From IMG/VR virus record IMGVR_UViG_3300001528_000621, positions 1 through 64,000 of that record: a stretch of DNA of 64,000 nucleotides. The stretch is one strand, 5' to 3'. The notes beneath the pieces are model-generated. The model saw only the letters and a list, made by a program, of their open reading frames with translations, searched no databases and was not told where the DNA came from. Both the position numbers and the translations under genes were made by a program. Positions 5,490 to 27,666 of this stretch are shown piece by piece (the first letter of the stretch is position 1; each line of letters begins with the position of its first letter). Source of the DNA: a virus. Its lineage: Duplodnaviria; Caudoviricetes.

Positions 5490-5506
5490 CATAACATTCT
5501 ATATAA

Positions 5507-5731: not shown

Positions 5732-5742
5732 AATCGTAGTTC

Positions 5743-8630: not shown

Positions 8631-8631
8631 A

Positions 8632-9579: not shown

Positions 9580-9580
9580 A

Positions 9581-10963: not shown

Positions 10964-11892
10964 GAGCAGTTTGGATTTATAGAGACTATCACAAAGGTCC
11001 AGCTAGACTTAAAAACAAGGTGGACGGAAACTGTGAAATCTTTAATAGAAGAGAACTAGAAGTTATGAGTGGAGCTTTAGCTTCGTGGCAAGTTCTAGCT
11101 CCTGAAGTTGAGAGAGTTCTTTACCTCGATTTGAGTATATATAACTATCTTTCTAAGGTTGATATGCTTAAGAGGTACGATAAGGTCATTCTCGTAGATT
11201 TTAATGAAGTTCTTGATTCAAAGTACCCTAATAACTGTTTCTTTGCTTCACCTAAACTCTGGGCTCTGACTCAATGTAATGAACCGACAATTTTACTTGA
11301 TACGGAAACGGTTCTATTTCAACCGCTCAAAGATTGGATGAATCCGGAAAACTTTTATGCTTTTAGATATAGTGTAGAAAATCCAATTCATCCTAGTAAA
11401 TGGCACAAGAATGACATAGAAGGATATAACGTAGAGTTAGAGAAATTAGGAGAATTAGGTAGATTCGTAAACTATCAAGATATGATAGAAGCTGGAATTA
11501 CCTATTGGCCTGATCCAAAAGCTGCTAGATGGGTAGGAAATAAAGCTCTTGAAGTGTGCGAAAAGGTTTGTAGTACAAACTACCTAGCTTTTGACTATAA
11601 ATGGACGATGTGTGAAGAGAGTAATCTTATACCTATTCTTCGAGACTATGTTTCAAACAATTACGAAGAAGGTAGAGCTCCTGAAATTTGCGTTTTACCG
11701 TCACAGCTGGATGTTCAATGTCCGGTAGCGGTTGAGATTAGTGGTCCGGGATGGTCAAGAGAAGTTTATAGTGGATTTGCAGGATGGATGCACACACTAT
11801 GTCCGGAGGTTTTGAAAAAGATACAAGAAATAGATCCTTACTACACCGACTGGGACACTCAAGCTTCTGTAGGATATCAAAATATTGTATGA
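10960..11892 (+). CDS. Putative GT-A fold transferase (paralog of 3046..3897)
   Basis: RVLY...FFASPKL...EPTILLDTE. Confidence 0.45.
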   Translation: MRAVWIYRDYHKGPARLKNKVDGNCEIFNRRELEVMSGALASWQVLAPEVERVLYLDLSIYNYLSKVDMLKRYDKVILVDFNEVLDSKYPNNCFFASPKLWALTQCNEPTILLDTETVLFQPLKDWMNPENFYAFRYSVENPIHPSKWHKNDIEGYNVELEKLGELGRFVNYQDMIEAGITYWPDPKAARWVGNKALEVCEKVCSTNYLAFDYKWTMCEESNLIPILRDYVSNNYEEGRAPEICVLPSQLDVQCPVAVEISGPGWSREVYSGFAGWMHTLCPEVLKKIQEIDPYYTDWDTQASVGYQNIV

Positions 11893-12941
11893 GAATAGCT
11901 ATATGCTTTTTTGGACAGCCTAGAACATTTGAGTTCTGTTACAGATTAAATGGAGAGTACTATGAAGAACTGCAAAAAGATAACAGCGTAGATTTCTTTA
12001 TTCATACTTGGAAGAATAATACCGGAGGTCTTGGGTCAGAAATAAACCAAGGCCTCGGGTTTAATACTCTACATGAGAAGCTAAGTACACTCTATGTTCC
12101 AAAAAAATTAGTGATAGAAGATGCTGAGTATGTAAAGTACGCTGTTTTTCCTAAAAGCACTGTCGATACATCCGATAGGTTCTTTTGTATGCAGTATTCT
12201 ATGGGTAAAACTTTACAGCTTTGTAGAAAATATGAAAAACAAGAGAATTTTAGGTATGATCAAGTAGTGTTACTTCGTATGGATCAGTGGTTTCCTAAAG
12301 GTTTCATATTAAACTCTGATCCGGAAAACATAGCAGGAAAGAGAGAAATCATATCTATTCAAGATATTCCTTTTCCGGAAAACTACAATACAGTTGACGG
12401 ACGAAACGTATTTTGCACCAGGGATGAAGGATTTCAATTTAACTCAGAGACTGCAGAAATTTTTTCTCATCTATGTTCTTGGCTTCTTACAAAATACAAC
12501 TATGGATTTTATGTAGGGGCTCCGATGCATTTTAATGAATTGTGGGCTCCAGAAGCTTCTATTTCTAGGTTTGTTCTAGACCAGAAACTGCATTTTAATC
12601 CAGCTAAAGGTATTGTACACGGAAGACTAATAGTAAGGCAGCCGCTAGAGACTTTACTCAGTCCAAAGAATCAATTTCACCTACAACTTCTTTACGAGAT
12701 TCGAGAGTGGGTAGATTACGTTACGAAAGAAGAGAAAGCATACACTTCCTACGTAAAAGGAAGACTAGCTGGAAGAAGTGCTAAAGATTGTCTAGAGGAA
12801 TTACAGAGATGGTATGATTTAGATTTTCTATCTACGTTTGTAGACTACTTAAAGTTTGGCGACGTAATTTCAGAAGAAATAGAACGAGGGTTGTTACAGG
12901 AAATAAGGAGAGGACATGAAAATAGCGCTGTGCTTATATAA
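11889..12941 (+). CDS. Putative glycosyltransferase, IAxCxxGQPR family, copy 1 (start corrected to ATG 11889)
   Basis: MRIAICFFGQPR, VDFFIHTW, YDQVVLLRMD; ATGA overlap with upstream stop. Confidence 0.55.
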   Translation: MRIAICFFGQPRTFEFCYRLNGEYYEELQKDNSVDFFIHTWKNNTGGLGSEINQGLGFNTLHEKLSTLYVPKKLVIEDAEYVKYAVFPKSTVDTSDRFFCMQYSMGKTLQLCRKYEKQENFRYDQVVLLRMDQWFPKGFILNSDPENIAGKREIISIQDIPFPENYNTVDGRNVFCTRDEGFQFNSETAEIFSHLCSWLLTKYNYGFYVGAPMHFNELWAPEASISRFVLDQKLHFNPAKGIVHGRLIVRQPLETLLSPKNQFHLQLLYEIREWVDYVTKEEKAYTSYVKGRLAGRSAKDCLEELQRWYDLDFLSTFVDYLKFGDVISEEIERGLLQEIRRGHENSAVLI

Positions 12942-13422
12942 TCTGAAATTAGATCAGAGTCTACAAGACGTAGAAGAACTCTTTAGAGTAAAAGATTTGT
13001 ACTGCGGAATTGTAGATTCTGATAGCTTAGAGGATACTTTACTGTCTATAGAAGCTTGTACTCAATTGTGTAGAGGTTCCAGGAAATACTACAATAGAGT
13101 AGTATTTTTAGACATGAAGAGATATTGTTCAAACACCGTTAAGCTTACTGATAACTTTTTTTCAAAAGACATTAAGGTTTTTCCTACAGACTTTGTAAGC
13201 GATGGAAACGGATTAAGCTTGACAGAAGAAGGACTTTATATGCTTAATACAGAGTGTTTTTGTGCAGGCTATGTAGCGTTACAGTATTTAGCAAACATTG
13301 AAGGACATTACAGGTTTAATGTAGGGTACGGTAGTGACTATGTTTCTTTAGATACAATACTACCGGTATTTATTTCTAGTAACGCTTTAAGTCTTAGTGC
13401 TATACCGTTTTTTGAGAAATGA
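12916..13422 (+). CDS. Short/degenerate member of the same family
   Basis: MKIALCLY and YNRVVFLD; lacks GQPR, only 168 aa. Confidence 0.4.
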   Translation: MKIALCLYNLKLDQSLQDVEELFRVKDLYCGIVDSDSLEDTLLSIEACTQLCRGSRKYYNRVVFLDMKRYCSNTVKLTDNFFSKDIKVFPTDFVSDGNGLSLTEEGLYMLNTECFCAGYVALQYLANIEGHYRFNVGYGSDYVSLDTILPVFISSNALSLSAIPFFEK

Positions 13423-14462
13423 GAATTGCTGTTTGTTTGTCAGGTCAACCTAGAGCTTTTAGAGCAGCTGCTAAAAACATATTAAAGACGTTTAGGAAAG
13501 AAGAAAATGTCCAGGTGGATTACTACATCTTTTCTTGGACAGATAATATAACACCGTACAGTCTCGAAAACATAAAACTGCAGGAAGATATAGTAGAGTT
13601 AGAGAGAGATCTTACAGAACTCTATCATCCTAAAAAACTTGAGATTAGGAGTGAGAAGGAAATAGATAAAGCTTTTGCATTCTTACCAGTGATACAGGAT
13701 GATTTTTATCAAATATATCATTTTGCTAGAGTACTATCGCTGGTTCCGAAAGACGAGGAGTATGATTGGTGTTTTTGGACAAGAATAGATAATTTTATGT
13801 TCAATTCGACCATAGACACCTATGAAGATTGGAAAGCTCCCAGACTAAACTACAAAACTATTCAGGTCTACAGCCAAGACAGTAGAAGTAATGATTTAAT
13901 ATACATGCCTATAAACGGAGATCGAGAAACACCGGTACACTACGCTAGCTGGGCTAGGTTTCAGCCTACCGCTATAGATCTCCTTTATGCAGGAAGGGTT
14001 GATGTTTTGAGAAATCTTTCTCTTAAGACATTTGTTACATATTTACGTGATATAGCTTTACTTAAACATGGAGATAAAAATTTTCTAGAGTGGTGGGTAC
14101 CCTATATTTGTACAATCTCTGGTATCGGAATTAGAAGCGTACCCTTTCTAGAAAACAATGAAGAGTTACAGTGTGGGGTATATAGGCAGGTTTTTGAAGA
14201 AGCTAATGTAAGTTTATATACAGCTCTAGGTTTCAAATTTTCGGATTTTGATAATTATTATAGACTCTATATGTTTGATATTACTTCTGAATATGTTCAG
14301 AAACTCTATGAACTATACCAAGCAGGTTATATTTTACCTCCTTTTACCACATCGGACAGTGCTGAAGCAGCGTCTTGGAGTAGAGCTAAAATAGAAGAAT
14401 ATATCAACAATCCAACTGAAAAGAGGAAGGTAAAAATACCGAAAAAACAAGATATACTATGA
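13419..14462 (+). CDS. Putative glycosyltransferase, IAxCxxGQPR family
   Basis: MRIAVCLSGQPR, VDYYIFSW, YDWCFWTRID. Confidence 0.55.
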   Translation: MRIAVCLSGQPRAFRAAAKNILKTFRKEENVQVDYYIFSWTDNITPYSLENIKLQEDIVELERDLTELYHPKKLEIRSEKEIDKAFAFLPVIQDDFYQIYHFARVLSLVPKDEEYDWCFWTRIDNFMFNSTIDTYEDWKAPRLNYKTIQVYSQDSRSNDLIYMPINGDRETPVHYASWARFQPTAIDLLYAGRVDVLRNLSLKTFVTYLRDIALLKHGDKNFLEWWVPYICTISGIGIRSVPFLENNEELQCGVYRQVFEEANVSLYTALGFKFSDFDNYYRLYMFDITSEYVQKLYELYQAGYILPPFTTSDSAEAASWSRAKIEEYINNPTEKRKVKIPKKQDIL

Positions 14463-15472
14463 AAATAGCAGTGTGCCTATCAGGTCAACCTAGAGCTTAT
14501 AAAGCTGCAGCTCGAAGCATTCTAGAAACCTTTAGAAATACAAAAGATATTCAAGTGGACTTTTATATTTTCGCTTGGACAAATAATACCTCCTATACAA
14601 CCCCTAATTGTGATGACGTTCTTCACGACATGGAAGGATTGAAGAGAGACTTAATCTCAATGTATCATCCTAAAGGAATAAGGGTAGAGGACGAAGAGGA
14701 AGTAGCGAAGATTTGTGGAGTTATTCACCCCAAAGTTACTGCAAACGCATATAACTTCTTCCAGAACTACCATATGATATCTTCAATTAGTATAGCTTTG
14801 GAGACAGGAGGGTATGATTATTATATTTGGACCAGGATAGACATGCTTTTTTATAATTTCTCGGGAGAGAGATACAATGCTCCGAACATTAACGTAGGAA
14901 CGTTACGTAGATTGTATGAACAGCCTTGTCATGTGCTCTATAATGTTGGTGAAAAATTAAGACTTCCTGCATGGTCAACGTATTTACCTAATTTTTTGGA
15001 TTTTCTATACTTCGGTAGGGAATATACATTTAGGTTAATGAGAGAGACCTTGATGAACACGTTCTTCAAACTTCTGACATATGAAGATAGGTTTACAGAA
15101 GAAGACAGAAATATTCGACAGAGTAGGTTTGCTTGTCCATATCTAGAGAACGACATTCCTTTATGGGCTTTTGAACATCAAATTGGACTGTATACTGTTC
15201 CTGATTTATTTGAAGAGAACAGTCACATGAAAGTCTTAAAGCAGTGTTATGTAGACGCTGGAATAGACTATTACGACAGGAAGGATTTTCTTTTTGCAGA
15301 AAGCTATCCTTGCTTATATCTCTACAAAAACATAACAACGGACATTATTAAAAAATTACGAATTCTGTATGGAGAAGGTAAGATTTTACCTTTCTTCCAA
15401 AAGACAAGATGGGAAGAAACACACCCGATAACAGCAATAGAAATGCGAAAAGCTTTAGTAGAGTATGAGTAA
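14459..15472 (+). CDS. Putative glycosyltransferase, IAxCxxGQPR family
   Basis: MKIAVCLSGQPR, VDFYIFAW, YDYYIWTRID. Confidence 0.55.
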   Translation: MKIAVCLSGQPRAYKAAARSILETFRNTKDIQVDFYIFAWTNNTSYTTPNCDDVLHDMEGLKRDLISMYHPKGIRVEDEEEVAKICGVIHPKVTANAYNFFQNYHMISSISIALETGGYDYYIWTRIDMLFYNFSGERYNAPNINVGTLRRLYEQPCHVLYNVGEKLRLPAWSTYLPNFLDFLYFGREYTFRLMRETLMNTFFKLLTYEDRFTEEDRNIRQSRFACPYLENDIPLWAFEHQIGLYTVPDLFEENSHMKVLKQCYVDAGIDYYDRKDFLFAESYPCLYLYKNITTDIIKKLRILYGEGKILPFFQKTRWEETHPITAIEMRKALVEYE

Positions 15473-16430
15473 AGTAGCAGTTTGCTTTTTTGGACAGCCT
15501 AGATCCTTAGATTTTTGTTCAGGAATACTAAAGACTGTTTTTGAAAGAGGAGGAAAAAACGAGGTGGACTACTTTATTCATTCCTGGAATGAGTGTAGCT
15601 ATGGAACGGGTTGGGGAGATGTAGATGAAAAATTTAAGATAGAAGAGGTAACAGAAAAACTAAAGCTTCTTTACAACCCTAAAAATATTCTTGTTGAGAA
15701 TCCACATACTCAAGGGGAATTCGAAGAGGAAGATTACATGTACAGTGTGCTTTCTGTATACTACTCTTTATGTAAAAGTATAACAATGAAGAGAAAATAT
15801 GAGAAAGAACACAAGTTTAGGTACGATTTTGTTATAGTTAGCCGGTTAGACCTGGGTGTGTATCCTTGTGAAAATTTAGAGGAATTTTGGGACCAGTACG
15901 ACTGGGATGATCCAGAGTTTCTCTTTCCATACGAAATAAAGACAACAGGAGGGCCAAACCCAATATACGCTACAGACTGTCCAGAGCACGGTACTCATAC
16001 TCAGATAGATTTGATTTATCTTTGTAGGTCTAAATGTGCAGACCTATTGGCCGGAATCTACAGATGGGCTCATGCTACTGGATCTTCTTGGGATTTTTCA
16101 CCCTCCTATAGAGATTCTTCTGGGTTCAGAGCTCTATACAACTTTAGGACTATGGGTCCAGACATAGTTTTATATAAGTTCCTAGCTAAAGAAGGTCTCT
16201 TTACGGGTTTGCAGTATATTGGAAACTTCTTTCCTGTGAGAACTGCTGTAGATGAGTACGACTTAGATCCGACTGATTATAAAACAAGAAAAGCTGTATG
16301 TAAATATTACAACGGATTTAAACCATATGAAGGAAGAGCTTGGGATGTACAGAATTTAGGCAAAGTTTTAGTAGAGAACGGAATTATTGAGGAAAAAGAT
16401 ATTCCAAAACCAAAGAACATCGTAGTATGA
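15465..16430 (+). CDS. Putative glycosyltransferase, IAxCxxGQPR family
   Basis: KVAVCFFGQPR, VDYFIHSW, YDFVIVSRLD. Confidence 0.55.
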   Translation: MSKVAVCFFGQPRSLDFCSGILKTVFERGGKNEVDYFIHSWNECSYGTGWGDVDEKFKIEEVTEKLKLLYNPKNILVENPHTQGEFEEEDYMYSVLSVYYSLCKSITMKRKYEKEHKFRYDFVIVSRLDLGVYPCENLEEFWDQYDWDDPEFLFPYEIKTTGGPNPIYATDCPEHGTHTQIDLIYLCRSKCADLLAGIYRWAHATGSSWDFSPSYRDSSGFRALYNFRTMGPDIVLYKFLAKEGLFTGLQYIGNFFPVRTAVDEYDLDPTDYKTRKAVCKYYNGFKPYEGRAWDVQNLGKVLVENGIIEEKDIPKPKNIVV

Positions 16431-17344
16431 AAGTAGCAGTGTGTCTGTTCGGACAACCTAGAGCTTGGAAGATAGCTTCTCAGACATTAAAGGAAATATA
16501 CAAAGAGGAAGAGGTAGATTTCTATGTTCATACTTGGACTGAAGATGATAATCTCTATTTTGACAGGTTCAATGTCACCCATAGTAGAGAGAAACTAGAA
16601 AGAGAAATAATTGAAGTATATCATCCTAAAGATCTCATAATAAATGACCGTAGTCGTGTAATGGAGCAAGAATGTAGAGATTTACCAGAGTTTGATGGTA
16701 AAACCTACACAAGAGGTCTCTGTCAAATGTACTCTATGTCTAAATCTATAGAAATGTGTATAGATTCAGAGATAGGGTATAACCTTGTAGTAGCGTGTAG
16801 GCTTGACACGTACATGTCACCGGGAGGAAAGCTAAAGATACCAGAAAGCCCTTTCAAAGACTGTAATAGAGTTCTTTGGATACCTAACTGTCATGAACCC
16901 TACTTTTCTATTGGAGGAGAAACTCAGATATCAGATATACTCTATATTATGACTTTACCTGCAGCTAAGATTATATCTGAAGAATTCTTTAATTTTGCTA
17001 AGTTAAGGTATAAGTATCTCGTAGAAAAGGATAAGACCATACCTCTTGAGGCCCCGTATCCGGATCATCTTTGTCCCTATGTTTTTCTTGAAGGAACGTT
17101 AATGCCTTTTTTAAGTTTTGTATGTATTCTACCTGTTTGCGGTGGAAATTTAGGGATGTATGAAGGTTACATCCGAATACTTTATCCGAACTGTACAGGT
17201 CTTGCAGATTATCTTTATTCTACAGATTTAAATAAGGTAAATAAAGTGGTTCACTATTTAGATACGTACCTTACTTTTGAAAATAAAGGTATATCTTCTG
17301 AAGAACTTAAACAAAAATTTCTACAATATGATAATAGCTGTTGA
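16427..17344 (+). CDS. Putative glycosyltransferase, IAxCxxGQPR family
   Basis: MKVAVCLFGQPR, VDFYVHTW, YNLVVACRLD. Confidence 0.55.
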   Translation: MKVAVCLFGQPRAWKIASQTLKEIYKEEEVDFYVHTWTEDDNLYFDRFNVTHSREKLEREIIEVYHPKDLIINDRSRVMEQECRDLPEFDGKTYTRGLCQMYSMSKSIEMCIDSEIGYNLVVACRLDTYMSPGGKLKIPESPFKDCNRVLWIPNCHEPYFSIGGETQISDILYIMTLPAAKIISEEFFNFAKLRYKYLVEKDKTIPLEAPYPDHLCPYVFLEGTLMPFLSFVCILPVCGGNLGMYEGYIRILYPNCTGLADYLYSTDLNKVNKVVHYLDTYLTFENKGISSEELKQKFLQYDNSC

Positions 17345-17690
17345 TATAGACGATACCTTGTGTACAAGACCGAAAGAAGCTGAACATTTAGGCTCTCCTA
17401 CAAAATATGAATATTGTGTGCCTATTCCGGATATGATTGAGAAAGTTAATGTTCTCTATGACCGAGGAAACACCATTATCTTGTATACTTCTAGAGGAAT
17501 GTCAAGTATAGGAACAAACGTAGAAGATATAGATAAAAAGTTACGGAAGGTTACAGAGCGAAAACTAAATGAATGGGGAGTAAAATATCATAAGCTTATA
17601 TTTGGAAAGATTCATTTTGATTATCTAATAGACGATAAAGCTTTTAGTGTTTCAGAGTTTATTGATAAATTTAATCATGATGAAATCTAA
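17328..17690 (+). CDS. HAD-superfamily phosphatase (capsule-biosynthesis type); start corrected to ATG 17328
   Basis: AVDIDDTL motif I, YTSRG motif II, FGK, IDDK motif IV. Confidence 0.8.
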   Translation: MIIAVDIDDTLCTRPKEAEHLGSPTKYEYCVPIPDMIEKVNVLYDRGNTIILYTSRGMSSIGTNVEDIDKKLRKVTERKLNEWGVKYHKLIFGKIHFDYLIDDKAFSVSEFIDKFNHDEI

Positions 17691-19257
17691 AGTTTTTATA
17701 TCTACTGTAGGAACAGGATCAAGACTAGGTGGTTTGACTCGATACATTAATAAGTCTCTACTTAGCGTAGGGACTAAACCTGTATTAACTCACATTCTAG
17801 AAAAGTTTCCGAAAGATTCGGAATTTATCATAGCTACCGGATATAAAGCTGAGCTCGTAGAAGAGTATCTTTCTCTTGCTCATTCAGATTTGAACATTAA
17901 AACTATTAGGGTAGAAAACTACGAAGGTGAAGGATCAGGACTAGGGCATACCTTTAGTTGCGTTGAAGATGAACTACAATGTCCATTTTACTTTTGCAGC
18001 TGTGATACCTTGTGCTCCTGCGGGACCCTTGCGGATATTGATACAGATTGGATTGTATTAAAGTATAGTCCTTCTGATGATCCAAGATACCGTACAGTCC
18101 GACTCCTTAATGAGGTTAGGATGGCAGGAGAAGGTATAGAGAAGATACAGGAAAAGGGTGAATATGGACATTCTTACGTAGGTCTCTGTCACGTTCAAGA
18201 CTATGAGAGGTTTTGGGAAGGAATGCATGCTGCATCTTCACCTGAACTAGGAGAGGTTGAAGGTTTACGTAATCTTGACTTGTCAAAGATGAAATATGCC
18301 TTTGCTAATCAATGGGACGATACAGGGTGTCTTGAAGGCCTAGAAGCAGCTAGGGTAAGATACAGGAAAGAGAGTGATCCAAACATACTACCTAAAGAGG
18401 ATGAAGCTATTTGGATACTTGACGATAAGGTTATAAAGTTCTTTAACAATCCGACTCTTATAGAGCAAAGAGTACAAAGAGCAGAACAGTTGAAAGGGTT
18501 TGTTCCGGAAATTATAGGGGTACGAAAACATATGTATTCTTATAGAAAAGCAGAAGGAACAGTTTTATCGGATTGTATTAATGTTCCGATTTTCAATAAG
18601 CTTCTAAACACTCTGCCGGACTTCTGGAAATTACCGGAAAATATAAAATTATCAGCAAAAGATTTTCACATAGATTGTGGAGAATTTTACAAAACCAAGA
18701 CTTATGAAAGAGTACAGAAGTTCTACAAGAGATTTAGTAAAGCAGATAAAGAATACACAATAAACGGTAAGGAATATCCTAAACTTCAGGAAATTCTCGA
18801 CAGTGTAAACTGGAGCAGCGTCTGTAGAGGAGTGCCGGTTAGGTTTCACGGAGATCTTCATAACGAAAATATATTGTACTCTGAAGATAAAGGTTTTACT
18901 TTTCTCGATTGGAGGCAGAGTTTTGGTAAATCTTTAGAGATAGGAGATGTTTATTATGATCTTGCAAAGCTTTATCATGGACTAATCGTAAATCACGGTT
19001 TGATTCACGATGGTCACTTTAGTGTTTATTGGCAAGGTAACAACATTACTTACGATTTTTACAGGAGACATGTTCTCGTAGAGTGTGAACAAGCTCTTTT
19101 TAGGTGGATAGAAAAAAGCTGTTATGATGGGAATAAAGTAAAGCTTATGACAGCTTTGATCTTCTTAAATATCTGCGGTTTACATGAATCTCCGTACAGT
19201 TTCATGCTATATGCTTTAGGTACAGAAATGCTTTATAGTTCAACGTATGAAAAATAA
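17677..19257 (+). CDS. Nucleotidyltransferase fused to APH/choline-kinase-like phosphotransferase
   Basis: N-terminal GTGSRLGGLT...NKSLL, WDDTG; C-terminal HGDLHNENIL, FLDWR, YDLAKL. Confidence 0.8.
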   Translation: MMKSKVFISTVGTGSRLGGLTRYINKSLLSVGTKPVLTHILEKFPKDSEFIIATGYKAELVEEYLSLAHSDLNIKTIRVENYEGEGSGLGHTFSCVEDELQCPFYFCSCDTLCSCGTLADIDTDWIVLKYSPSDDPRYRTVRLLNEVRMAGEGIEKIQEKGEYGHSYVGLCHVQDYERFWEGMHAASSPELGEVEGLRNLDLSKMKYAFANQWDDTGCLEGLEAARVRYRKESDPNILPKEDEAIWILDDKVIKFFNNPTLIEQRVQRAEQLKGFVPEIIGVRKHMYSYRKAEGTVLSDCINVPIFNKLLNTLPDFWKLPENIKLSAKDFHIDCGEFYKTKTYERVQKFYKRFSKADKEYTINGKEYPKLQEILDSVNWSSVCRGVPVRFHGDLHNENILYSEDKGFTFLDWRQSFGKSLEIGDVYYDLAKLYHGLIVNHGLIHDGHFSVYWQGNNITYDFYRRHVLVECEQALFRWIEKSCYDGNKVKLMTALIFLNICGLHESPYSFMLYALGTEMLYSSTYEK

Positions 19258-19906
19258 ACTATCACCGTCATTGATCTGCTTAGATCCGCTAAATCTTCGA
19301 GAGGAAATCAAGCAACTCGAAGAAGGAGGAGCAGACATGCTGCATGTAGATTTTTTAGATGGACATTTTAGTCCATCCATGCCACTGGGCTTCGATCTTG
19401 CACGTAGGGTAAGGGAAATAACAAAGCTTCCATTCGATGTACATGTAATGGTTTCGGACGGATTTAAGTGTTTTGATGATATAGCTAAACTAAAGCCATA
19501 TCAAATTACATTTCAGATAGAAACACTAACTCATCCATACGAAACATTGCAAAGATTTAAAGATCTTGGATGTAGGGTAGGAGTAGCGGTTCAACCAGCA
19601 ACGTCACTCACAACTCTTGACTGGATTCTTGATATTTGCGATGTAGTCTTATTTATGGCTATTGAACCGGGATTTGCTTCACACAATGTTCAGTTTATTC
19701 CGAGTACTTATGAGAAAATCTTAACATTCTACGGTCAGATGGATTTACAAGACAGAGAGTGTGAAATAGAGCTTGATGGACGAGTGTCTCTAGACGTAAT
19801 GAGAAATCTTAAGGACAAAGTTACAGCGTTTGTGTGCGGAAGTAGCTGTTTGAATAGGAAAGACTTAAAAGGATCAATAGAATATGTACGAAACATTCTC
19901 GAGTAG
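19247..19906 (+). CDS. rpe: Ribulose-phosphate 3-epimerase family protein
   Basis: LSPSL, LHVDFLDGHFSP, FDVHVMV, MAIEPGF, IELDG. Confidence 0.85.
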   Translation: MKNKLSPSLICLDPLNLREEIKQLEEGGADMLHVDFLDGHFSPSMPLGFDLARRVREITKLPFDVHVMVSDGFKCFDDIAKLKPYQITFQIETLTHPYETLQRFKDLGCRVGVAVQPATSLTTLDWILDICDVVLFMAIEPGFASHNVQFIPSTYEKILTFYGQMDLQDRECEIELDGRVSLDVMRNLKDKVTAFVCGSSCLNRKDLKGSIEYVRNILE

Positions 19907-20453
19907 GTTTAAAAGAAACACTGGAACAGTTTTACTAGAGCTGAGAGACGTTTTGGTTAATATAAGTCCGGAAGATCTAGAGAAGTTTATAGTAGAGTTA
20001 AACACAGCAGAGAAGATTTTCTTTGTAGGTGTAGGAAGAGTAAAACTTTCTCTAGAAGCTATAGCTAAAAGGCTAAGTCATCTAGGATACGATACTCATA
20101 TGGTCGGGGATATGAACGAACCAGCTATAACAGAAAAGGATTTACTTATAGTCGGTTCTGGTAGTGGAAATACCGTTGTTCCAGTAGCAATAGCAAAGAG
20201 AGCTAAAGAACTGAGAGCAACCGTATTACATCTTGGATCAAACAAAGATGGAGCTGTATCAAAGTATGTAGATGTTTTTGTAAGGATACCGGCAAATACG
20301 AAGTATAAGAAAGAAGGAGAGGTAGAATCTAAACAACCGATGACGTCGCTGTTTGAACAGTCTCTACTTCTTTTTGGGGACATTGTAGTAATGTCAATCT
20401 TGAATGGAGAAGATATAGAGGGACTGTGGGAATGTCATGCAAACCTAGAGTAA
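19884..20453 (+). CDS. hxlB: 6-phospho-3-hexuloisomerase (SIS domain)
   Basis: FVGVGR, RLSHLG, GSGSGNT, QPMTSLFEQ, C-terminal HANLE typical of HxlB/PHI. Confidence 0.85.
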   Translation: MYETFSSRFKRNTGTVLLELRDVLVNISPEDLEKFIVELNTAEKIFFVGVGRVKLSLEAIAKRLSHLGYDTHMVGDMNEPAITEKDLLIVGSGSGNTVVPVAIAKRAKELRATVLHLGSNKDGAVSKYVDVFVRIPANTKYKKEGEVESKQPMTSLFEQSLLLFGDIVVMSILNGEDIEGLWECHANLE

Positions 20454-20497: not shown

Positions 20498-20590
20498 ATG
20501 ACAGAGAAAGAAATAATAGTAGCAGTTATGCAGGACATTGCAGATGCTATCATGGCAACAGTACCACAAAATTCAACCGAAGAAGAGTAA
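20498..20590 (+). CDS. 30-aa acidic peptide MTEKEIIVAVMQDIADAIMATVPQNSTEEE (not in ORF track)
   Basis: ATG 20498 after an A-rich leader, TAA 20588-20590, 6 nt before the next ATG. Confidence 0.55.
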   Translation: MTEKEIIVAVMQDIADAIMATVPQNSTEEE

Positions 20591-20596
20591 AGAATT

Positions 20597-22207
20597 ATGA
20601 AAGGAGTATTAATAGGTTCAGATTTGATGTATAGGCAGGACGGAAGTCTTGTACCGATTGAGATAAATACTAACGTAGGTTGGGATGTTACGAACAGGAT
20701 GGAGAGAGAAGAAGATATGTGGGATTTTAGTTTTCTAAGATCTTACATTAAGGAACATAACATAACAGACATATATCTTGAAGGTCAGATTCAAAGAATG
20801 AAGAATTTCTGGCCAGAGGACATGGGTGCAGAGGTTCATGTAATCACTAAGGAAGAAATGGATGAATCTACTGACGAGTCTGAATATCATCTTTACATTA
20901 GGTCTGCATATAGTGATGAAGCTTATGTAGATAGTTTCTGTAGAGATAAGGTTAACTTCTTGAATGCTATTCAAAATCTTAGTTTCGGTTGTGAATATCT
21001 TCTAAAGACTTCTGGAGGATTAGTAGGAGACATTACAAAGGTAGAAGATAACGGAAAGCTTCCAAACTTCTTGGTAAAGTATAGATACCCAAACTATAAT
21101 AAGAGTAAGTATCCGCTTGCAATTAGGTTTGATAATGTAGAGAAGTTGAAGAGCTGGGCAGAAGCGAATCTAGAAGAGGATTACTTCATTATGCCGTTCT
21201 ACTACGATGTAGATAATCTTTACAAAGCAGAGGGAGAAGAGAATTCAAGAATTAAGCTTATAAGGAACTGGAGTCTTTACATCGCAAATGATGAAGGAAG
21301 TCTAGATTCTGTTTATGTAGCTTCATATACAAAGCTTTCTGCAGAGATCGATGAGAGTAAGATAGAGTGGAATGAAGATGGAACGTGTAAAGACGAGGAA
21401 TCTCTTCATAGAATGATTTCATCTGCTCTTTGGACTTTAGCAGACAATCTAGATGTACTCTTGGAAGCTAATGACGTAGTCTTGATGGAGGATGATACTT
21501 GGAAAGAAGCATCTGAGTTGAAGACAGGGTTGAAAGTAAAGGCTGTTACGATTCCGACTTCTGGAACGGTGGATATTCACAAGAGTGTAGAAGACTATAA
21601 CGTAAGTTTCGAGGAACTAGTTGCATCTTCAAGTTATACAATTAATGAGATTAAGGTTGTTCATAAGGTGGAAGGATGGGTTAGTGAGACAGTCTTGAAT
21701 TTCACTGATGGAACAGATTGGTTTGATTCTGATGCATCATCTTATCCGGTTCTTGATCCGAAGGATCAGACAGTAATGTTCAAGAAAGTCGGAACTATAG
21801 AAGCGGGTGACAAAGTCATCTTAATGGAAGCAGGTGCAACAGAACTAGAGAAACCAACATTTGTAATAAGAGAGGTAGAGAGTACGAGTAAGAGAAGAGT
21901 ATTGCAGAAAGGTTACGCGATAAGCTTGGACGGAAATCACTTGTTCTTGTCTAAGACTTCAGCGGACGCGCAGGCATACATCTCTATAGAACATAATTCT
22001 GTCTCGGACAAATCATCAAACACATGCTACATATTGTTTTCAGACTCAAAGTGTTCAGAATACGCTAATACGGTTTACCTAGACCCCTCTACATCTCGTT
22101 GCCACAGTATGCTAGGTCCGTGCACTGTCGAAGGTTCATGTATTTTAGGGCAGCCATGCTTTACTCCTAGTGCTTTATCTTATCTTATAGGAACCTTGTA
22201 CAACTAA
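20597..22207 (+). CDS. Circularly permuted ATP-grasp-like domain + Hint (intein-like) domain + variable C-terminal module (cassette A, 69 aa, 6 Cys)
   Basis: N-terminal IGSDLMYRQDGSLVPIEINTN (D...ExN); Hint-like blocks LLEANDVVLMEDDTWKEASELKTGLKV, IEAGDKV, YAISLDGNHLF, terminal HN followed by S. Confidence 0.7.
   Translation: MKGVLIGSDLMYRQDGSLVPIEINTNVGWDVTNRMEREEDMWDFSFLRSYIKEHNITDIYLEGQIQRMKNFWPEDMGAEVHVITKEEMDESTDESEYHLYIRSAYSDEAYVDSFCRDKVNFLNAIQNLSFGCEYLLKTSGGLVGDITKVEDNGKLPNFLVKYRYPNYNKSKYPLAIRFDNVEKLKSWAEANLEEDYFIMPFYYDVDNLYKAEGEENSRIKLIRNWSLYIANDEGSLDSVYVASYTKLSAEIDESKIEWNEDGTCKDEESLHRMISSALWTLADNLDVLLEANDVVLMEDDTWKEASELKTGLKVKAVTIPTSGTVDIHKSVEDYNVSFEELVASSSYTINEIKVVHKVEGWVSETVLNFTDGTDWFDSDASSYPVLDPKDQTVMFKKVGTIEAGDKVILMEAGATELEKPTFVIREVESTSKRRVLQKGYAISLDGNHLFLSKTSADAQAYISIEHNSVSDKSSNTCYILFSDSKCSEYANTVYLDPSTSRCHSMLGPCTVEGSCILGQPCFTPSALSYLIGTLYN
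21968..21998 (+). repeat. Shufflon-like repeat R1
   Basis: GCGCAGGCATACATCTCTATAGAACATAATT, encodes AQAYISIEHN. Confidence 0.95.
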
Positions 22208-22683
22208 CTTATGACTATATACAGGTCTTGAGAAAATGAATCTTGAATATACAAGGTGCCTTCACATGTTCGAGGTCTAATGGTCAACTCTGTTTCTGCC
22301 GCTATATCGCCGCCGCTTGAATAAATTTCCATTCTTGAAACAGGCGGAAGAGCCTGTGTTCCGGCAAAAGAAAGATCTACCCAAAGTGCTATGTCTGGAT
22401 CGCTTAGATCGTTGGCTGTAATACCTATATTATATACCAAGGACCAGTCAGAACTAGTTGCCTCTATGTTCTCTAAACTTAAATTGTAAATAGTACCATC
22501 ACTTAGAGTTAATTGTACTATTGACGAAGTTTTGTCTAAACCTTGTTGTCCTGTACCGTTCTGTATAGTGAGAAAAACCTGTATAACTTCGTATACTACT
22601 TTATCTGGTGCTACACATTCATCTTCGGTGCCGTCGCAAGTGATATCATACGAATTATGTTCTATAGAGATGTATGCCTGCGC
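22204..22683 (-). other. Silent cassette B: AQAYISIEHN + 149-aa module (SYDITCDGTEDECVAP...DLYIVIS)
   Basis: Open frame from R2 through the ORF-track fragment 22204..22440; in-frame TGA directly upstream of R2; its stop overlaps the stop of cassette A. Confidence 0.85.
22653..22683 (-). repeat. Shufflon-like repeat R2
   Basis: Exact reverse complement of R1. Confidence 0.95.
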
Positions 22684-22733: not shown

Positions 22734-23033
22734 ATGCATATAGACTTTAAGGAAATTTTATCGGCTTGGGCAGCTAAGATCAATCCGACACCGGATCAGA
22801 AAGATCTAGCTCTAAGAAGAGCAAAAATTTGTGATGAGTGTGAATTTCTTGGAGAAGTTCTCAAAGACAAGAAAATGACACAATATTGCAAAGAATGCGG
22901 CTGTGTCATTGGTGCTAAGATTTATAGCTACAAAGAAGGTGCTTGTCCGAAGAACAAATGGGACAGAGTAGATTGTGAATTTAGAAATTCAAAAGCGATT
23001 AAAGTGCTTAAACATCCGAGATCGATCGTATAA
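22734..23033 (+). CDS. Small Cys-rich, probably Zn-binding protein
   Basis: CDEC...CKECGC...K...CPKNKW. Confidence 0.7.
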   Translation: MHIDFKEILSAWAAKINPTPDQKDLALRRAKICDECEFLGEVLKDKKMTQYCKECGCVIGAKIYSYKEGACPKNKWDRVDCEFRNSKAIKVLKHPRSIV

Positions 23034-23043
23034 GCGCTATATT

Positions 23044-23089
23044 ACATAAAGAAACCCGGAATCTTGATCGATTTCGGGCTTTTTTATGT
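23044..23089. terminator. Putative bidirectional intrinsic terminator
   Basis: CCCGGAATC/GATTTCGGG stem with A-rich 5' and T-rich 3' flanks. Confidence 0.6.
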
Positions 23090-23098
23090 GCATTATCT

Positions 23099-23129
23099 GC
23101 GCAGGCATACATCTCTATAGAACATAATT
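23099..23129 (+). repeat. Shufflon-like repeat R3
   Basis: Exact copy of R1. Confidence 0.95.
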
Positions 23130-23290
23130 ATGTTATTGATCCTGGTACGATGTCTAAGTGTGGTCCGGCATACTGTAACGGCCTCATCTGCGAATGTGAT
23201 ACTAGTAACTGCTATCTAGACAGCACTACTGTTATTAACTGCAGTAGTGATGAATCTGTTTGTGCTAAGTATTTGTGTGTACAAACATAG
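23099..23290 (+). other. Silent cassette C: AQAYISIEHN + 53-aa module YVIDPGTMSKCGPAYCNGLICECDTSNCYLDSTTVINCSSDESVCAKYLCVQT (8 Cys)
   Basis: Translated by hand from R3; TAG at 23288-23290; absent from the ORF track. Confidence 0.85.
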
Positions 23291-23402: not shown

Positions 23403-23660
23403 TTAAGATTTAGACACTTCGCAAGAAGATTCTCTATAGCTTTTATAACCACCTAAAATAGTACAACCTGTTGGAGTTCCATTGTGACATGTATCCGTCA
23501 AATCCGGTATAGAGGAGCAGTTAGCCGGTGTTGTACAGTTCTCTCTCAAAACGTACTCTCGTGGACCAACGCAATTCTCGTTTGAGTAACGTACGTATAT
23601 AACTACTTCTGAGACGCCAATAATATTAGAATTATGTTCTATAGAGATGTATGCCTGCGC
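23403..23660 (-). other. Silent cassette D: AQAYISIEHN + 75-aa module SNIIGVSEVV...SSCEVSKS (6 Cys)
   Basis: Corresponds to ORF-track 23403..23720 from the repeat onward. Confidence 0.85.
23630..23660 (-). repeat. Shufflon-like repeat R4
   Basis: Exact reverse complement of R1; identity extends to 38 bp (21963-22000 vs 23628-23665). Confidence 0.95.
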
Positions 23661-23852: not shown

Positions 23853-25850
23853 ATGGCAGAAGTATTGGTAAGCCCTGGAATTCAGATTACAGAGACTGAT
23901 AAGAGTTACGTTCCTGCTAGACCGTTGATAGCTGGAGCAGCTATTATCGGACCTACAGCGAAAGGTCCTGCAAATTCTCCTACAGTGGTGACATCGTATG
24001 GTGATTATCAGCGAAAATTTGGTACAACGTTCATGATGAACAGGTACGAAAAGAAGACTACTGAGACAGATAAGTATGTCGAAGCTGAGTATGGAGAATA
24101 CATCAAGAATGAGAGTGGAGAGTACGTTATACCTGAAAATTATTCAGATTCAGATGTAAGGTATGCTAAGACAACCGAAACCTCCGATGAACTCATTAAA
24201 TTGCAGCAGAAAAAGCAAGAATACTTGACAAGTATGGCTGCAAAGAGCTTCTTTGAGCAAGGAGGAGAGTCATTGCTCGTAGTTAGAGTAACAGATAACG
24301 ATTTCAAGAGCGGTAGAGCTGTTATTCCTGCAAAGAACGATGGGACTGCTTTCGAGATTAAGACAATTTCTCAGGGAGAGGATTTAAACAACTGGTCTGG
24401 GAGTTTCCAGGACAGGTCAGAAACTACAGCATCAATTGACGGTGTTATCAGAACCGATGGTTCACTTATTAGTGGATCTAAGGACAATATTAGATGGGAA
24501 ATCGCAGATGTAGATGAAGAGACAGGTACATTCTCAATCTATGTACGAAGAGGCGATGATGTAGATTATGATAAGAACATTCTAGAGGCCTTTACTGGAC
24601 TTAATCTTGATCCTGATAGTGAAAATTATATCTCGAGGAGAATTGGTGACCAGTATCAGGAGCTTGTAGAAGAGGTTGTAGGAGACAGCACAATCTACTA
24701 TATCCGACCTTACGGAAATTATCCTAACATTTCAAACTATATCTACATTAAGGATGTAAATCCGATTTACGGATACTTCTTAGCAGATGGATATACTCGA
24801 AGAGGAAAGGATACTGAGGATGATGTAGCTAACATGCTACCTAAGCAGGTTGAAGGAGGTTTTGCACAAGCTGAAGGTAAGCTCTTCACAAACGAAGAGG
24901 ATGAAGCAAATGCTCTATTCTTCGAAGATATTACAAACGGACACGCTGGTGCAGTAGGAGGCTATACTAGTGAGAATAAGATTCAAGGTATTAACCCAGA
25001 AAAGTATCAGCCACTTATTGCCTGTCTTGAGAATACTGATGAATACGAAATTAATATGATCTCAGTTCCAGGTCTTACAGTAGCAAATAATACGACTGAG
25101 GTTGATATGGTTAATTCTCTTGCTTCAAAGAGAGGAGACCTTATTGCAGTTGTAGACCTTGTAGGTTTCGGTTCACCAATCGGCGATGTTCAGCAGAAAG
25201 CTCTTGGACTTAATAGCAGCTATTCAGCAGCTTATTGGCCTTGGCTTCAGATGTATAGCTCAACCGGAAGGCTCGAATGGGTACCAGCATCGGTTATCAT
25301 TCCTGGCGTTTATACCTATACCGATCATGTAGCTGCTCCTTGGTATGCTCCTGCAGGTATGACTAGAGGCAGTGTTCAGGGCGTTATTCAGACAGAAAGG
25401 AAACTTTTGAAGCAGCATAGGGATGAACTTTATAAGAAGAACGTTAACCCTATTAGCATTCTTCCTGGAAACGGCATTACGGTTTACGGTCAGAAAACAC
25501 TTCAGAAGAAAGCTACTGCACTTGATAGAGTAAATGTAAGACGACTCTTGATTGAACTTAAGAGAACAGTTAAGAACATGGCTTCTGGGTTGCTCTTCGA
25601 GTTCAACGACGCTCAGCTTAGAAGTACATTTAAGAACAATCTTGATGCTTACTTGGAGAGCGTGACAAAACGTAGAGGTCTATATTCTTACAAGACAGTA
25701 GTGGAAGAACTAAATACGCCAGATGTTATTGATAGGAATGAACTAAGATGTCAGATATATATCCAACCGTCAAAAGTTGTGGAATTTATTTACATCGATT
25801 TCACTATTACCAATACCGGTGTAGATTTCAACACCCTAAGTACATCTTAG
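23853..25850 (+). CDS. Contractile tail sheath protein
   Basis: SPGIQITETD, IGPTAKGP, YWPW, PWYAPAG, GQKTLQ, LDRVNVRRLL, QPSKVVEFIYIDF. Confidence 0.95.
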   Translation: MAEVLVSPGIQITETDKSYVPARPLIAGAAIIGPTAKGPANSPTVVTSYGDYQRKFGTTFMMNRYEKKTTETDKYVEAEYGEYIKNESGEYVIPENYSDSDVRYAKTTETSDELIKLQQKKQEYLTSMAAKSFFEQGGESLLVVRVTDNDFKSGRAVIPAKNDGTAFEIKTISQGEDLNNWSGSFQDRSETTASIDGVIRTDGSLISGSKDNIRWEIADVDEETGTFSIYVRRGDDVDYDKNILEAFTGLNLDPDSENYISRRIGDQYQELVEEVVGDSTIYYIRPYGNYPNISNYIYIKDVNPIYGYFLADGYTRRGKDTEDDVANMLPKQVEGGFAQAEGKLFTNEEDEANALFFEDITNGHAGAVGGYTSENKIQGINPEKYQPLIACLENTDEYEINMISVPGLTVANNTTEVDMVNSLASKRGDLIAVVDLVGFGSPIGDVQQKALGLNSSYSAAYWPWLQMYSSTGRLEWVPASVIIPGVYTYTDHVAAPWYAPAGMTRGSVQGVIQTERKLLKQHRDELYKKNVNPISILPGNGITVYGQKTLQKKATALDRVNVRRLLIELKRTVKNMASGLLFEFNDAQLRSTFKNNLDAYLESVTKRRGLYSYKTVVEELNTPDVIDRNELRCQIYIQPSKVVEFIYIDFTITNTGVDFNTLSTS

Positions 25851-25861
25851 TGTTTTTAATG

Positions 25862-25893
25862 CCCCGGAGTTGTCTAAGCTTCCGGGGTTTTTT
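25862..25893 (+). terminator. Putative intrinsic terminator
   Basis: CCCCGGAG/CTTCCGGGG stem + T6. Confidence 0.7.
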
Positions 25894-25941
25894 ATGTCAA
25901 GGTCTATAATTATATTCAATAAACTTAGGCGTATTAAGATC

Positions 25942-27666
25942 ATGGACATTAAGATTGAATTGGATAGGATTGCTAAAGAGCACTCCGGAGGTTACAGTAA
26001 GATTATAAAATCCCAATATCCGGAAGAATTTATAAAAATTTCAGAGTCATACGAAGGGGTTAATTTCGGGGAAAAACTCTGGCTTTATGTTTACGGGCCT
26101 GAAAAGTCTATTTGTCCAGTTTGTGGAAAAAAGAAAAAATTCGGAAAGTATTCAACAGGGTATCCGGGAATAACTTGCAGTAGAGCTTGTACTTTTAAGC
26201 ATTTAGGTATATCCTCTAATTTTCAATTACCTTCAGCTGTTATAAAGAAGAGAGAAGCTATACTACGAGGCTGCTATAAGAATGTCGGTAAAAAAGCTAA
26301 AGAAACACATTTAGCTAAATACGGGGACTATAAAGAAGCTATTAAAAAGGGAAAACAGACTAGACTTCTTCGATATGGTTCTGAAAATTATAACAACCGA
26401 CAAAAGCAGAGAGAAACCTTTGAAGAGCGATACGGAGTAGGGGGAAGGACAGAAAAGCAGAAAAAAGCTCTTAAGGAGTTGATAGAAAAGAAAGGGTTTG
26501 GTACAGAAACACACAAAAAGTGGTTAGAGAATCAAGGAGTTACGAATGCTTCCCAATTAGAATCTGTCAAAACTAAAAAACATCAGAAGCGCGTTCATCA
26601 AGATTTTGAATATCTAAGGGAGTTTGCTGAAAGTAGAGACTTAAAACCTTTATTCTCAGAACAAGATTTCAAAGGATACGTTGAAGGAGATCTTGAATTT
26701 CATTGCAATCGGTGTGGAAACGACTTTAAGTATGGTAGAGTTCAGAGTTCCTACCTAAGGTGTCCTATCTGCTACCCTAAGAGAGCGTATACTTCTTATG
26801 AGCAGCAAGAAGTTCAGAATTTTCTAGAAGATCTCGGCATATCTTTTGAGGTAGAAAATCAAAAGATCATAGGAAAAGAGCTAGACATTTATATACCGGA
26901 TAAGAAAATAACTATAGAGTATGATGGACTCTATTGGCACTCAGCTCAAACCGGTACAACGTCGGAAAGACATTTAGAAAAGACAGAACTTTGTGAGAAA
27001 AAGGGGATTAGGTTGATTCACATCTTTGAAGATGAATGGCTATTTAAGCGGAAGATTGTAGAAAGTAGGTTAAAAACAATCTTAGGGGTAGAAACAGATA
27101 GGACCTATGCTAGAGAGTGTAAAATTAAGAAAATAGACTCTAAAACCTGTAATGATTTTTTAGAAAAATACCATATTCAGGGAGCAGATAGAGCCTCTAT
27201 CAGGTACGGACTCTATTATCAAGAGGATCTTGTAGCTGTAGAGACATTTGGAAACCTAAGAGCAGCTTTAGGTCAAAAGCGAAAAGAAGGTGAATATGAA
27301 TTACTTAGGTTTTGTTCAAAAACACAGGTTGTTGGTGGATTTTCTAAGCTTTTAAGATATTTTATAGAGGAACATAAACCCAAGCGAATAATCTCGTATG
27401 CAGACCGGAGGTGGTGTAACCTAAAAGGACACACCGTTTATGAAAAAGCTGGATTTAGGTTAGTTTCCGAAGGAACACCTAACTACTGGTATTTTAAGAG
27501 CGATGTTCTTAGGCGTTATCATAGGTTTTCGTTTAGGAAGAGTGTACAAAAGAAAGTATTGGAGAAGTTTGATGAAAGTTTAACAGAACAACAGAATATG
27601 GGCAGGAATAAGTACCTGTGGATCTGGGATTGTGGTTCGTACAAATTTCAGCTAGACTTAGAATAG
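25942..27666 (+). CDS. Hef-like homing endonuclease-type protein (Zn fingers + PD-(D/E)xK-like domain); start likely ATG 25942
   Basis: CPVC, CNRC/CPIC, ELDIYIP..KITIEYDGLYWHS, GIRLIHIFEDEW, ISYADRRW, WDCG. Confidence 0.7.
   Translation: MDIKIELDRIAKEHSGGYSKIIKSQYPEEFIKISESYEGVNFGEKLWLYVYGPEKSICPVCGKKKKFGKYSTGYPGITCSRACTFKHLGISSNFQLPSAVIKKREAILRGCYKNVGKKAKETHLAKYGDYKEAIKKGKQTRLLRYGSENYNNRQKQRETFEERYGVGGRTEKQKKALKELIEKKGFGTETHKKWLENQGVTNASQLESVKTKKHQKRVHQDFEYLREFAESRDLKPLFSEQDFKGYVEGDLEFHCNRCGNDFKYGRVQSSYLRCPICYPKRAYTSYEQQEVQNFLEDLGISFEVENQKIIGKELDIYIPDKKITIEYDGLYWHSAQTGTTSERHLEKTELCEKKGIRLIHIFEDEWLFKRKIVESRLKTILGVETDRTYARECKIKKIDSKTCNDFLEKYHIQGADRASIRYGLYYQEDLVAVETFGNLRAALGQKRKEGEYELLRFCSKTQVVGGFSKLLRYFIEEHKPKRIISYADRRWCNLKGHTVYEKAGFRLVSEGTPNYWYFKSDVLRRYHRFSFRKSVQKKVLEKFDESLTEQQNMGRNKYLWIWDCGSYKFQLDLE

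Follow-up and report, generated by a model that had tools for sequence, protein, structure and literature searches.

A widespread phage gene trio built on an ATP-grasp-Hint fusion probably releases, and perhaps re-attaches, variable mini-proteins

Why should a phage place a ligase fold directly upstream of an intein-like domain and let the protein end in an exchangeable segment? The question is raised by one locus of IMGVR_UViG_3300001528_000621, a complete 187,848-bp phage record of IMG/VR with terminal repeats, of which we analyzed the first 64 kb (64,000 nucleotides; hereafter, the window). The main gene of this locus (20597-22207, plus strand) encodes a protein of 536 amino acids (aa) that consists of three parts: an ATP-grasp domain, a Hint domain and a Cys-rich tail. 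Both ATP-grasp ligases and autoprocessing Hint domains are well known individually. The original prediction, made from the nucleotide sequence, proposed that the Hint domain releases the tail with a fresh N-terminus and that the ATP-grasp domain may then ligate this amine to a carboxylate, for instance of a virion protein, or cyclise the peptide, in a system that would be phase-variable. We found this interpretation to be partly supported, namely for the architecture and the probable cleavage. We also found that the main gene forms a conserved unit with two further genes, encoding a helper peptide and a zinc-ribbon protein, which the original prediction had missed. Taken together, the steps of our best explanation describe a three-part processing enzyme within this conserved phage gene trio, and we consider the chances that this explanation is correct to be about even. 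The trio is widespread; it probably releases variable mini-proteins and perhaps re-attaches them.

Approximately 100 relatives were aligned for each domain, and each part of the protein was predicted separately with AlphaFold2. The model of residues 1-282 reached a predicted local distance difference test (pLDDT) value of 94 and a predicted template modelling score of 0.88. The Foldseek search revealed that the best PDB matches of this model were the yeast and human glutathione synthetases (E 4e-6), and further matches included E. coli YjfC and YgiC, the E-64 ligase Cp1B and the structure 3n6x, which resembles glutathionylspermidine synthetase (GspS). Upon superposition with VIA-align, model residues 1-270 were collinear with residues 122-480 of 1m0w, with a Z-score of 9.2 and a root mean square deviation (rmsd) of 5.9 Å over 237 residues; model residues 1-280 were likewise collinear with residues 119-465 of human glutathione synthetase and with residues 94-381 of YgiC. 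In contrast, the ordinary, unpermuted ATP-grasp enzymes Ddl, LysX/ArgX and TTL could be aligned only from model residue ~56 onwards, with a Z-score of ~5. Because the permuted enzymes align over the full length and the unpermuted enzymes only from residue ~56, the pattern is the signature of a circular permutation.

The model contained a D9...E22-I-N24 motif, whose residues D9, E22 and N24 were located in the first two strands. Together with R102, K161 and R223, these are the candidate catalytic residues (putative metal ligands and basic phosphate-binding residues), and they were found on the strands expected for an ATP-grasp enzyme. Glu144 of human glutathione synthetase, a residue of the Mg/ATP site (PMC10106969), falls about where E22 aligns. 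Residue conservation was scored in 79 distant representatives with 23-50% identity, and all six residues were unchanged in 79/79 of them; T25 was replaced by Ser in three. Invariance at this level of identity argues that the motif set is more than chance. At the level of fold and conservation, the N-terminal domain is a circularly permuted ATP-grasp domain of the glutathione-synthetase/GspS-like type with an apparently intact set of catalytic-type residues. A structure search of BFVD gave no match for this domain, and a sequence-profile search of the PDB with the main protein yielded nothing significant or relevant.

The C-terminal part of the protein was modelled with a Hint core of pLDDT >90 and a poorly determined tail. 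Foldseek matched this part to the bacterial intein-like (BIL) structure BIL2 (6y75), to Hedgehog (1at0) and to many inteins, with E ~1e-6 and target-normalized template modelling (TM) scores of 0.65-0.70; the BIL structures among the matches were 2lwy and 6y75. VIA-align placed residues 19-197 of the model on residues 1-172 of the RadA intein (4e2t) with a Z-score of 12.5 and an rmsd of 3.0 Å over 146 residues. In protein numbering, residue 288 corresponded to intein position 1 and residues 466-467 to the last residues of the intein, and the Hint fold, a pseudo-twofold symmetric horseshoe of β-strands, covered whole mini-inteins end to end. The first position of the domain was Leu288, and no Cys, Ser or Thr nucleophile was present there. 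Residues 380-383 read A-S-S-Y in place of the block-B T-x-x-H of inteins, and residues 465-467 read E-H-N, so that the C-terminal His466-Asn467 of block G was present.

Some relatives gave sub-threshold Pfam matches to Hint, Hom_end_hint, PT-HINT and Intein_splicing (3/104 members at E < 0.1). The only relative with a sub-threshold match to PF07591, the pretoxin-HINT family, was P0150, with 21.3 bits against a gathering cut-off of 27.7; the query protein itself had no PF07591 match, and a far relative of locus L088 had a recorded match to Intein_splicing. At the level of fold and conservation, the middle domain is a Hint domain that lacks the N-terminal acyl-shift machinery and retains the terminal His-Asn. 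As evident from these results, the structural claims of the original prediction held: a Hint-like region at residues 288-467 ending in His-Asn, with Leu rather than Cys or Ser as its first residue and without the block-B TxxH, behind an N-terminal D...ExN motif of a circularly permuted, GspS-like ATP-grasp domain. Fold prediction of both domains had been named beforehand as the refuting test, and both were positive with Foldseek and VIA-align.

The family comprised at least 178 close-to-moderate relatives, which formed ~145 representative clusters at 50% identity. Their sources were in all cases metagenomes or contigs (up to 336 kb) of uncultured phages, and no relative was found among 50,697 deposited phage records searched with tblastn and blastn. 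In every one of the ~145 clusters, the ATP-grasp domain was fused directly upstream of the Hint domain. H466-N467 was retained in all but two of the 73 distant representatives that aligned at the junction. The first Hint position was occupied by L, K, H, I, T or Y and never by a conserved nucleophile, and the position of the block-B His by Y, I or L. The residue following the Asn (position +1) was drawn from 15 residue types, among which Ala and Val were the commonest, with no conserved Cys, Ser or Thr. Across the family, conservation ended sharply at E-H-N. The fixed His-Asn, the absent acyl-shift machinery, the unconstrained +1 position and the sharp border to a hypervariable region together fit a Hint domain that performs C-terminal cleavage. 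The pattern of a cleavage-only Hint domain next to a ligase, as originally predicted, was thus matched by conservation, and release of the tail is well motivated from the sequences, with precedents in type A BIL domains (PMC4031507) and in pretoxin-HINT domains (PMC3417536). Our best reading of the sequence data is that the tail would be released by Asn cyclisation, and the conserved residues suggest that the chain is cut at one fixed position, where an amine would become exposed immediately beside the ligase.

The same conservation bears on the proposal that the protein is not processed at all. On this account, the intact 536-aa protein would serve the virion as a structural component or as decoration, with the tail displayed as its receptor-binding tip, and the two folds would have been kept only as scaffolds. 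Swapping of C-terminal tips by inversion is classic for phage tail fibres, the main gene lies between tail-fibre and glycan genes on one side and the tail sheath on the other, and BACON domains in the long tails suggest binding. A scaffold, however, would not fix D9, E22, N24, R102, K161, R223 and the His-Asn pair at 23% identity while their neighbours drift; no fibre-like or trimeric features were seen, and the protein showed no match to phage structural families. We regard an unprocessed virion protein as very improbable.

A tail was found after the His-Asn in every full-length relative, and its length ranged from 23 to ~1200 aa. Most tails had 33-55 aa with 6, 8 or 10 Cys, and the short tails overall carried 4-14 Cys; some tails were β-rich domains of 130-240 aa, and a few were giant tails with BACON domains. 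Many tails contained no Asp or Glu, which leaves the C-terminus as the sole carboxylate. The tails diverged far faster than the bodies: the body was 100% identical and the tail 69% identical between locus L003 and relative P0029, and a body identity of 98% was accompanied by a tail identity of 24% both between the window and P0002 and between P0019 and P0021. In our reading, the tail is the variable working end of the protein and most likely a binding module. The short tails of the large clade were hypervariable, yet their framework of spaced Cys was retained, as was a C-x-K motif with a near-invariant Lys; this motif reads C-A-K in cassette C of the window. In a comparison of L003 with P0029-P0037, the bodies were 99.6-100% identical and the 159-aa tails 67-89% identical, with substitutions scattered along the tail; these sequences suggest targeted hypervariation or intense recombination in the tail. 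Scorpion-toxin-like matches of a tail profile were rejected as insignificant (E 0.4-8).

In the phage analyzed here, the expressed tail (cassette A) is accompanied by three silent cassettes (B-D). The last codons of the Hint domain are part of a junction repeat, of which four exact 31-nucleotide (nt) copies, two per strand, were present in the 187.8-kb genome and none elsewhere in it. Each copy ran in frame into its own open cassette, and the inverted repeats bounded alternative in-frame segments. The +1 residue was Tyr in cassette C and Ser in the other three, as had been claimed. The four repeats were identical even at synonymous positions, which argues for ongoing recombination at these junctions, either site-specific or homologous, and by such recombination the three silent tails could replace the expressed one. 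Cassettes A-D showed no similarity among themselves or to 253 other tails, and cassette B had no homologue among longer proteins. A search of the complete 187,848-bp genome, in which the controls were positive, found no serine (PF00239), tyrosine (PF00589) or IS110-type (PF01548) recombinase. The 598-aa neighbour at 25870 was considered as an invertase and rejected, as it is a homing endonuclease (phrog_3339).

To place these repeats in the family, we used a census of 85 loci, consisting of the window, 4 loci fetched by protein identity and 80 IMG/VR loci; three loci (L086-L088) were added separately. Among the 85 loci, extra junction copies were found in this window only, and no exact copy of the junction repeat was found on searching other viral and metagenome contigs. 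In the sister contig L086 (ENA; 1396-1868), a nucleotide identity of ~98% to the window stopped exactly after the His-Asn codons and was followed by a fifth tail type and by a convergent, open, Cys-rich frame on the minus strand that ran off the contig. This frame indicates that at least one silent cassette is maintained in the sister phage as well. Given the extra copies in the window alone and the spare cassette in L086, the spare cassettes are confined to this phage and its sister contig and are a recent elaboration of one lineage.

These tails can also be read as products of release only. In that case, the Hint domain would free the tail as a toxin, an adhesin or a signalling peptide, as in polymorphic toxins and effectors, and the role of the ATP-grasp domain would be unrelated to the new N-terminus; it might modify a glycan acid or another phage protein, or act on the tail before cleavage. 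The combination of a conserved body, a Hint domain, a polymorphic C-terminus and spare cassettes parallels pretoxin-HINT systems (PMC3417536), and P0150 has its sub-threshold PT-HINT match. The module also lies inside glycan/modification islands (in the window and in L001, L003, L004, L087 and L088), and the tails evolve like arms-race modules. However, none of the tails or neighbours matched a toxin or immunity family, and release on its own leaves unexplained why the ligase is fused directly upstream of the Hint domain in all ~145 clusters. We consider release without any ligation of the new N-terminus unlikely.

The partner genes were then compared across the loci. An open reading frame (ORF) of 24-38 aa for the helper peptide adjoined the main gene in 88/88 loci (the 85 census loci and L086-L088). 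In this phage's clade, it was located directly upstream, and the peptide ended in two or three Glu; in the large clade, it was located 10-60 nt downstream, and the peptide mostly ended in Asn-Ser with one acidic residue; in the far clades L087 and L088, it was also located downstream, and the peptide ended in ...HT or ...HLQ. The feature common to the helper peptides was an amphipathic helix. An acidic C-terminus was considered as a universal feature and rejected, since it is specific to this phage's clade.

A complex of the full protein with ATP, Mg and the helper peptide was modelled with a score of 0.83, compared with 0.02 for the best of 3 controls. This score was reached by 58/80 solved complexes and by 2/110 mismatched pairs, counts that are rough owing to custom alignments and the ligands riding along. 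The runs agreed in at least 91% of contacts, and the pLDDT of the partner was at least 81. In the model, peptide residues 3-22 contacted residues 6, 8, 10, 17-20, 23, 222-228 and 234-243 and the helices at 110-130, the helper helix was wedged between the sheet and the helices, and the last eight residues of the peptide were not placed. The model supports binding of the helper peptide to the ATP-grasp domain, and we read the peptide as a core helix of this domain that is supplied in trans and would dock as a subunit.

The zinc-ribbon gene (~95 aa, six conserved Cys) was present in 84/85 census loci and in L087, which amounts to 85/87, and was usually located ~100 nt downstream. The protein of the window shared 54% identity with the neighbour in L001 and 37% with that in L002. 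It belongs to phrog_13558, which has no assigned function, and has a faint link to DUF6171. A role as a LysW-like acidic carrier was rejected, as the C-terminus is basic and hydrophobic. In the 205-kb relative L004, the zinc-ribbon gene (7623-7916) is antisense to the main gene, unlike in all other loci, which may be the trace of an inversion there.

With the helper peptide in place, the system may also be compared with ribosomally synthesized and post-translationally modified peptides (RiPPs). In this scheme, the tail would be a core peptide attached to its own enzyme, the helix peptide a leader that acts in trans and activates the ATP-grasp domain, and the Hint domain a replacement for the leader protease; the ATP-grasp domain would macrocyclise the tail, either head-to-tail or from a Lys to the C-terminus. 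Such a scheme agrees with short tails of 23-60 aa that are Cys-rich and hypervariable on a conserved scaffold with the near-invariant C-x-K Lys (large clade), with the many tails whose C-terminus is the sole carboxylate in the absence of Asp and Glu, and with the helix peptide modelled as bound to the ATP-grasp domain. Tails of 130-1200 aa with BACON or β-rich domains, however, are unlikely substrates for macrocyclisation; moreover, the ATP-grasp domain is of the glutathione synthetase/GspS type and not of the RimK type of graspetide ligases, and no conserved Ser/Thr plus Asp/Glu core motif was present. Overall, we judge a RiPP-like pathway to be decidedly unlikely.

Our preferred explanation, the three-part processing enzyme, would operate as follows. 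Asn467 would cyclise and cut the chain exactly at the border of the conserved body and the hypervariable, mostly Cys-rich tail, and this cut would leave the freed tail with a new alpha-amino group irrespective of which residue comes first. In a further and weaker step, the ATP-grasp domain would use ATP to activate a carboxylate and couple it to the freed amine, which the Hint domain would hold nearby. The candidate carboxylates are the C-terminus of the helper peptide, the tail's own C-terminus (which would result in cyclisation), and another acid of the phage or of the neighbouring glycan pathway. Ligation of the freed amine by the ATP-grasp domain is a plausible step. A thioester is not available here, and every Hint domain of the family directly follows an apparently active carboxylate-amine ligase; the most economical account is that this ligase would provide the activated acyl group in the form of an acyl phosphate, which would explain why any +1 residue is tolerated. 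We put forward, as a tentative and rather doubtful possibility, an ATP-driven ligation without a thioester, in which the Hint domain exposes the tail amine, the ATP-grasp domain completed by the helper peptide forms a new amide via an acyl phosphate, and the tails are swappable. If this is true, the product would be a tail joined to the helper peptide or to a phage or glycan acceptor, or a head-to-tail cyclic cystine-rich mini-protein, and a phage with hypervariable tails, or with tails exchanged by cassette switching, would be able to replace the attached module at will.

Several observations weigh against this explanation. The main protein matched no Pfam family at E <= 1 and no PHROG family at E <= 0.01, and the matches of relatives to Hint-family hidden Markov models (HMMs) were below threshold, so that support for the Hint domain at the sequence level was weak. 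Residues 451-467, which form the last strand and carry E-H-N, were modelled at a pLDDT of only ~53. The block-F His448 was not invariant and was conserved in the nearer clades only; likewise, E465 was conserved in the nearer clades only and was replaced by Q, T or M in the far clades. The C-terminus of the helper peptide was not universally conserved (EEE here, NS in the large clade, HT or HLQ in the far clades), and the modelled helper helix lay on the face of the sheet opposite D9, E22, N24 and R223, which makes a structural subunit likelier than a substrate. All mechanistic steps rest on homology and conservation, and neither cleavage nor ligation was observed.

The features of the locus are listed in Table 1. 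An extended series of sugar-modifying genes precedes the main gene, and the tail sheath gene (23853-25850) follows 1.6 kb downstream. The nearest cultured relatives by tail-sheath similarity are the 160-kb Flavobacterium 'immuto' myoviruses (44% identity), in which the main gene was not found; the small ORF that precedes the sheath gene of Flavobacterium phage immuto was unrelated to the zinc-ribbon protein. Glycan/modification islands repeatedly hold the module, at 3046-20453 of the window and in the flanks of L001, L003, L004, L087 and L088. Their genes encode GT7 glycosyltransferases fused to LamG, UDP-glucose dehydrogenase and radical SAM enzymes, and in L088 also adenosine 5'-phosphosulfate kinase and a sulfotransferase-like protein; this setting hints at glycosylation or some other modification of the tails or the virion. 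The homing endonuclease of the window (25870-27666; 598 aa; phrog_3339, E 3e-121; with a Vsr/MTES_1575-like nuclease core) lies between the tail sheath gene and the next tail genes; in the related phages L001, L003 and L004, the sheath gene directly adjoins a 162-aa gene with no endonuclease between them. In the large freshwater-type clade (L006-L084), the usual upstream neighbour of the main gene encodes a DUF2061 membrane protein of ~70 aa, assigned to PF09834 in L088. The loci L023 and L054 belong to one 211-kb contig (IMGVR_UViG_3300042892_005961), which contains two complete ATP-grasp-Hint modules ~38 kb apart with different tails.

Table 1. Features of the ATP-grasp-Hint locus, in window coordinates.
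Feature	Position	Strand	Basis
Helper-peptide gene (30 aa, amphipathic helix, ends in three Glu), 6 nt 5' of the main gene	20498..20590	+	Homologous ORFs, complex model
Circularly permuted ATP-grasp domain, residues 1-282	20597..21442	+	AlphaFold2 model, Foldseek, VIA, residue invariance
Hint domain, residues 288-467	21458..21997	+	Foldseek, VIA, residue check
Junction repeat copy 1 (31 nt; codes for the last ten Hint residues)	21968..21998	+	Exact match
Expressed tail, cassette A (69 aa, 6 Cys, residues 468-536), and stop	21998..22207	+	Low-confidence fold
Silent cassette B (149 aa, 3 Cys), convergent with A	22204..22653	-	Open for 149 codons, in frame with repeat copy 2
Junction repeat copy 2	22653..22683	-	Exact match
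Zinc-ribbon protein gene (99 aa, six conserved Cys), between repeat copies 2 and 3	22734..23033	+	Homologues in loci
Terminator-like hairpin, 3' of the zinc-ribbon gene	23055..23078	+	Single site; not above shuffled expectation
Junction repeat copy 3	23099..23129	+	Exact match
Silent cassette C (53 aa, 8 Cys)	23129..23290	+	In frame with repeat copy 3
Silent cassette D (75 aa, 6 Cys)	23403..23630	-	In frame with repeat copy 4
Junction repeat copy 4	23630..23660	-	Exact match; outer pair extends to 44 nt at 95%

The literature searched contained no description of an ATP-grasp domain fused to a Hint or intein-like domain, and none of the curated families of Pfam and PHROG describes such a fusion; the ATP-grasp-Hint family and its three-gene unit appear to be undescribed. 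The hypervariable cystine-rich tails, four of which are switchable here, mark a fast-evolving and currently unannotated phage function, and with its conserved partners, the 30-aa peptide and the zinc-ribbon protein, the system can be tested directly as a set of three small genes. If the proposed ligation is true, it would represent a new route for sequence-independent, ATP-driven ligation or cyclisation of proteins and peptides, which would be of interest to RiPP biology and to protein engineering, a field that now relies on inteins, sortases and asparaginyl ligases.

Compared with known systems, the locus shows partial likenesses to several. It differs from graspetides of the microviridin type in that there are no conserved core pairs of Thr/Ser/Lys with Asp/Glu and many tails lack Asp and Glu. 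The alternative C-terminal segments in both orientations, bordered by short identical in-frame repeats, resemble the Gin/Cin/Min inversion systems and the R64 shufflon; here, in contrast, no recombinase is present in the complete 188-kb genome, the protein is not a fibre, and no isomers were observed. The combination of an ATP-grasp enzyme with a small, separately encoded partner is shared with LysX/ArgX and LysW, and LysX/ArgX is among the fold matches of the ATP-grasp domain (Z ~5); in this clade, the peptide ends in Glu and a zinc ribbon is encoded alongside. In LysW, however, a single protein carries both the zinc ribbon and the acidic tail, whereas here they are distributed over two genes, the C-terminus of the zinc-ribbon protein is basic and hydrophobic, and most clades have no acidic end.

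Eukaryotic glutathione synthetase, YgiC/YjfC and fungal Cp1B form a group of carboxylate-amine ligases. The ATP-grasp domain shares with them the same fold and permutation and an acid...Glu-x-Asn motif at the N-terminal hairpin. It differs in its length of 282 aa versus 380-490, in an identity of only ~10-14% and in the lack of an HMM match, and the complex model suggests that one core helix is supplied by a separate 30-aa gene product. Within this group, Cp1B forms an amide in the biosynthesis of E-64 (PMC12568646).

Pretoxin-HINT domains (PF07591) have been proposed to release the C-terminal modules of polymorphic toxins by autoproteolysis (PMC3417536). As in these systems, the Hint domain here directly precedes a polymorphic C-terminal module, and spare cassettes downstream share the junction sequence; in contrast, the present system is phage-encoded, is fused to an ATP-grasp domain, has inverted cassettes and lacks toxin and immunity domains. 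In type A BIL domains, Asn cyclisation cuts the chain even though position +1 offers no nucleophile, and the amine set free by the cut then reacts with an activated acyl group, a thioester (PMC4031507). The domain described here resembles them in its Hint fold, its C-terminal His-Asn, the lack of a +1 nucleophile and its location in hypervariable proteins. Type A BIL domains, however, start with Cys and form the thioester themselves, whereas position 1 is Leu, Lys or His here and the block-B TxxH is absent family-wide; any acyl activation would have to come from the fused ATP-grasp domain.

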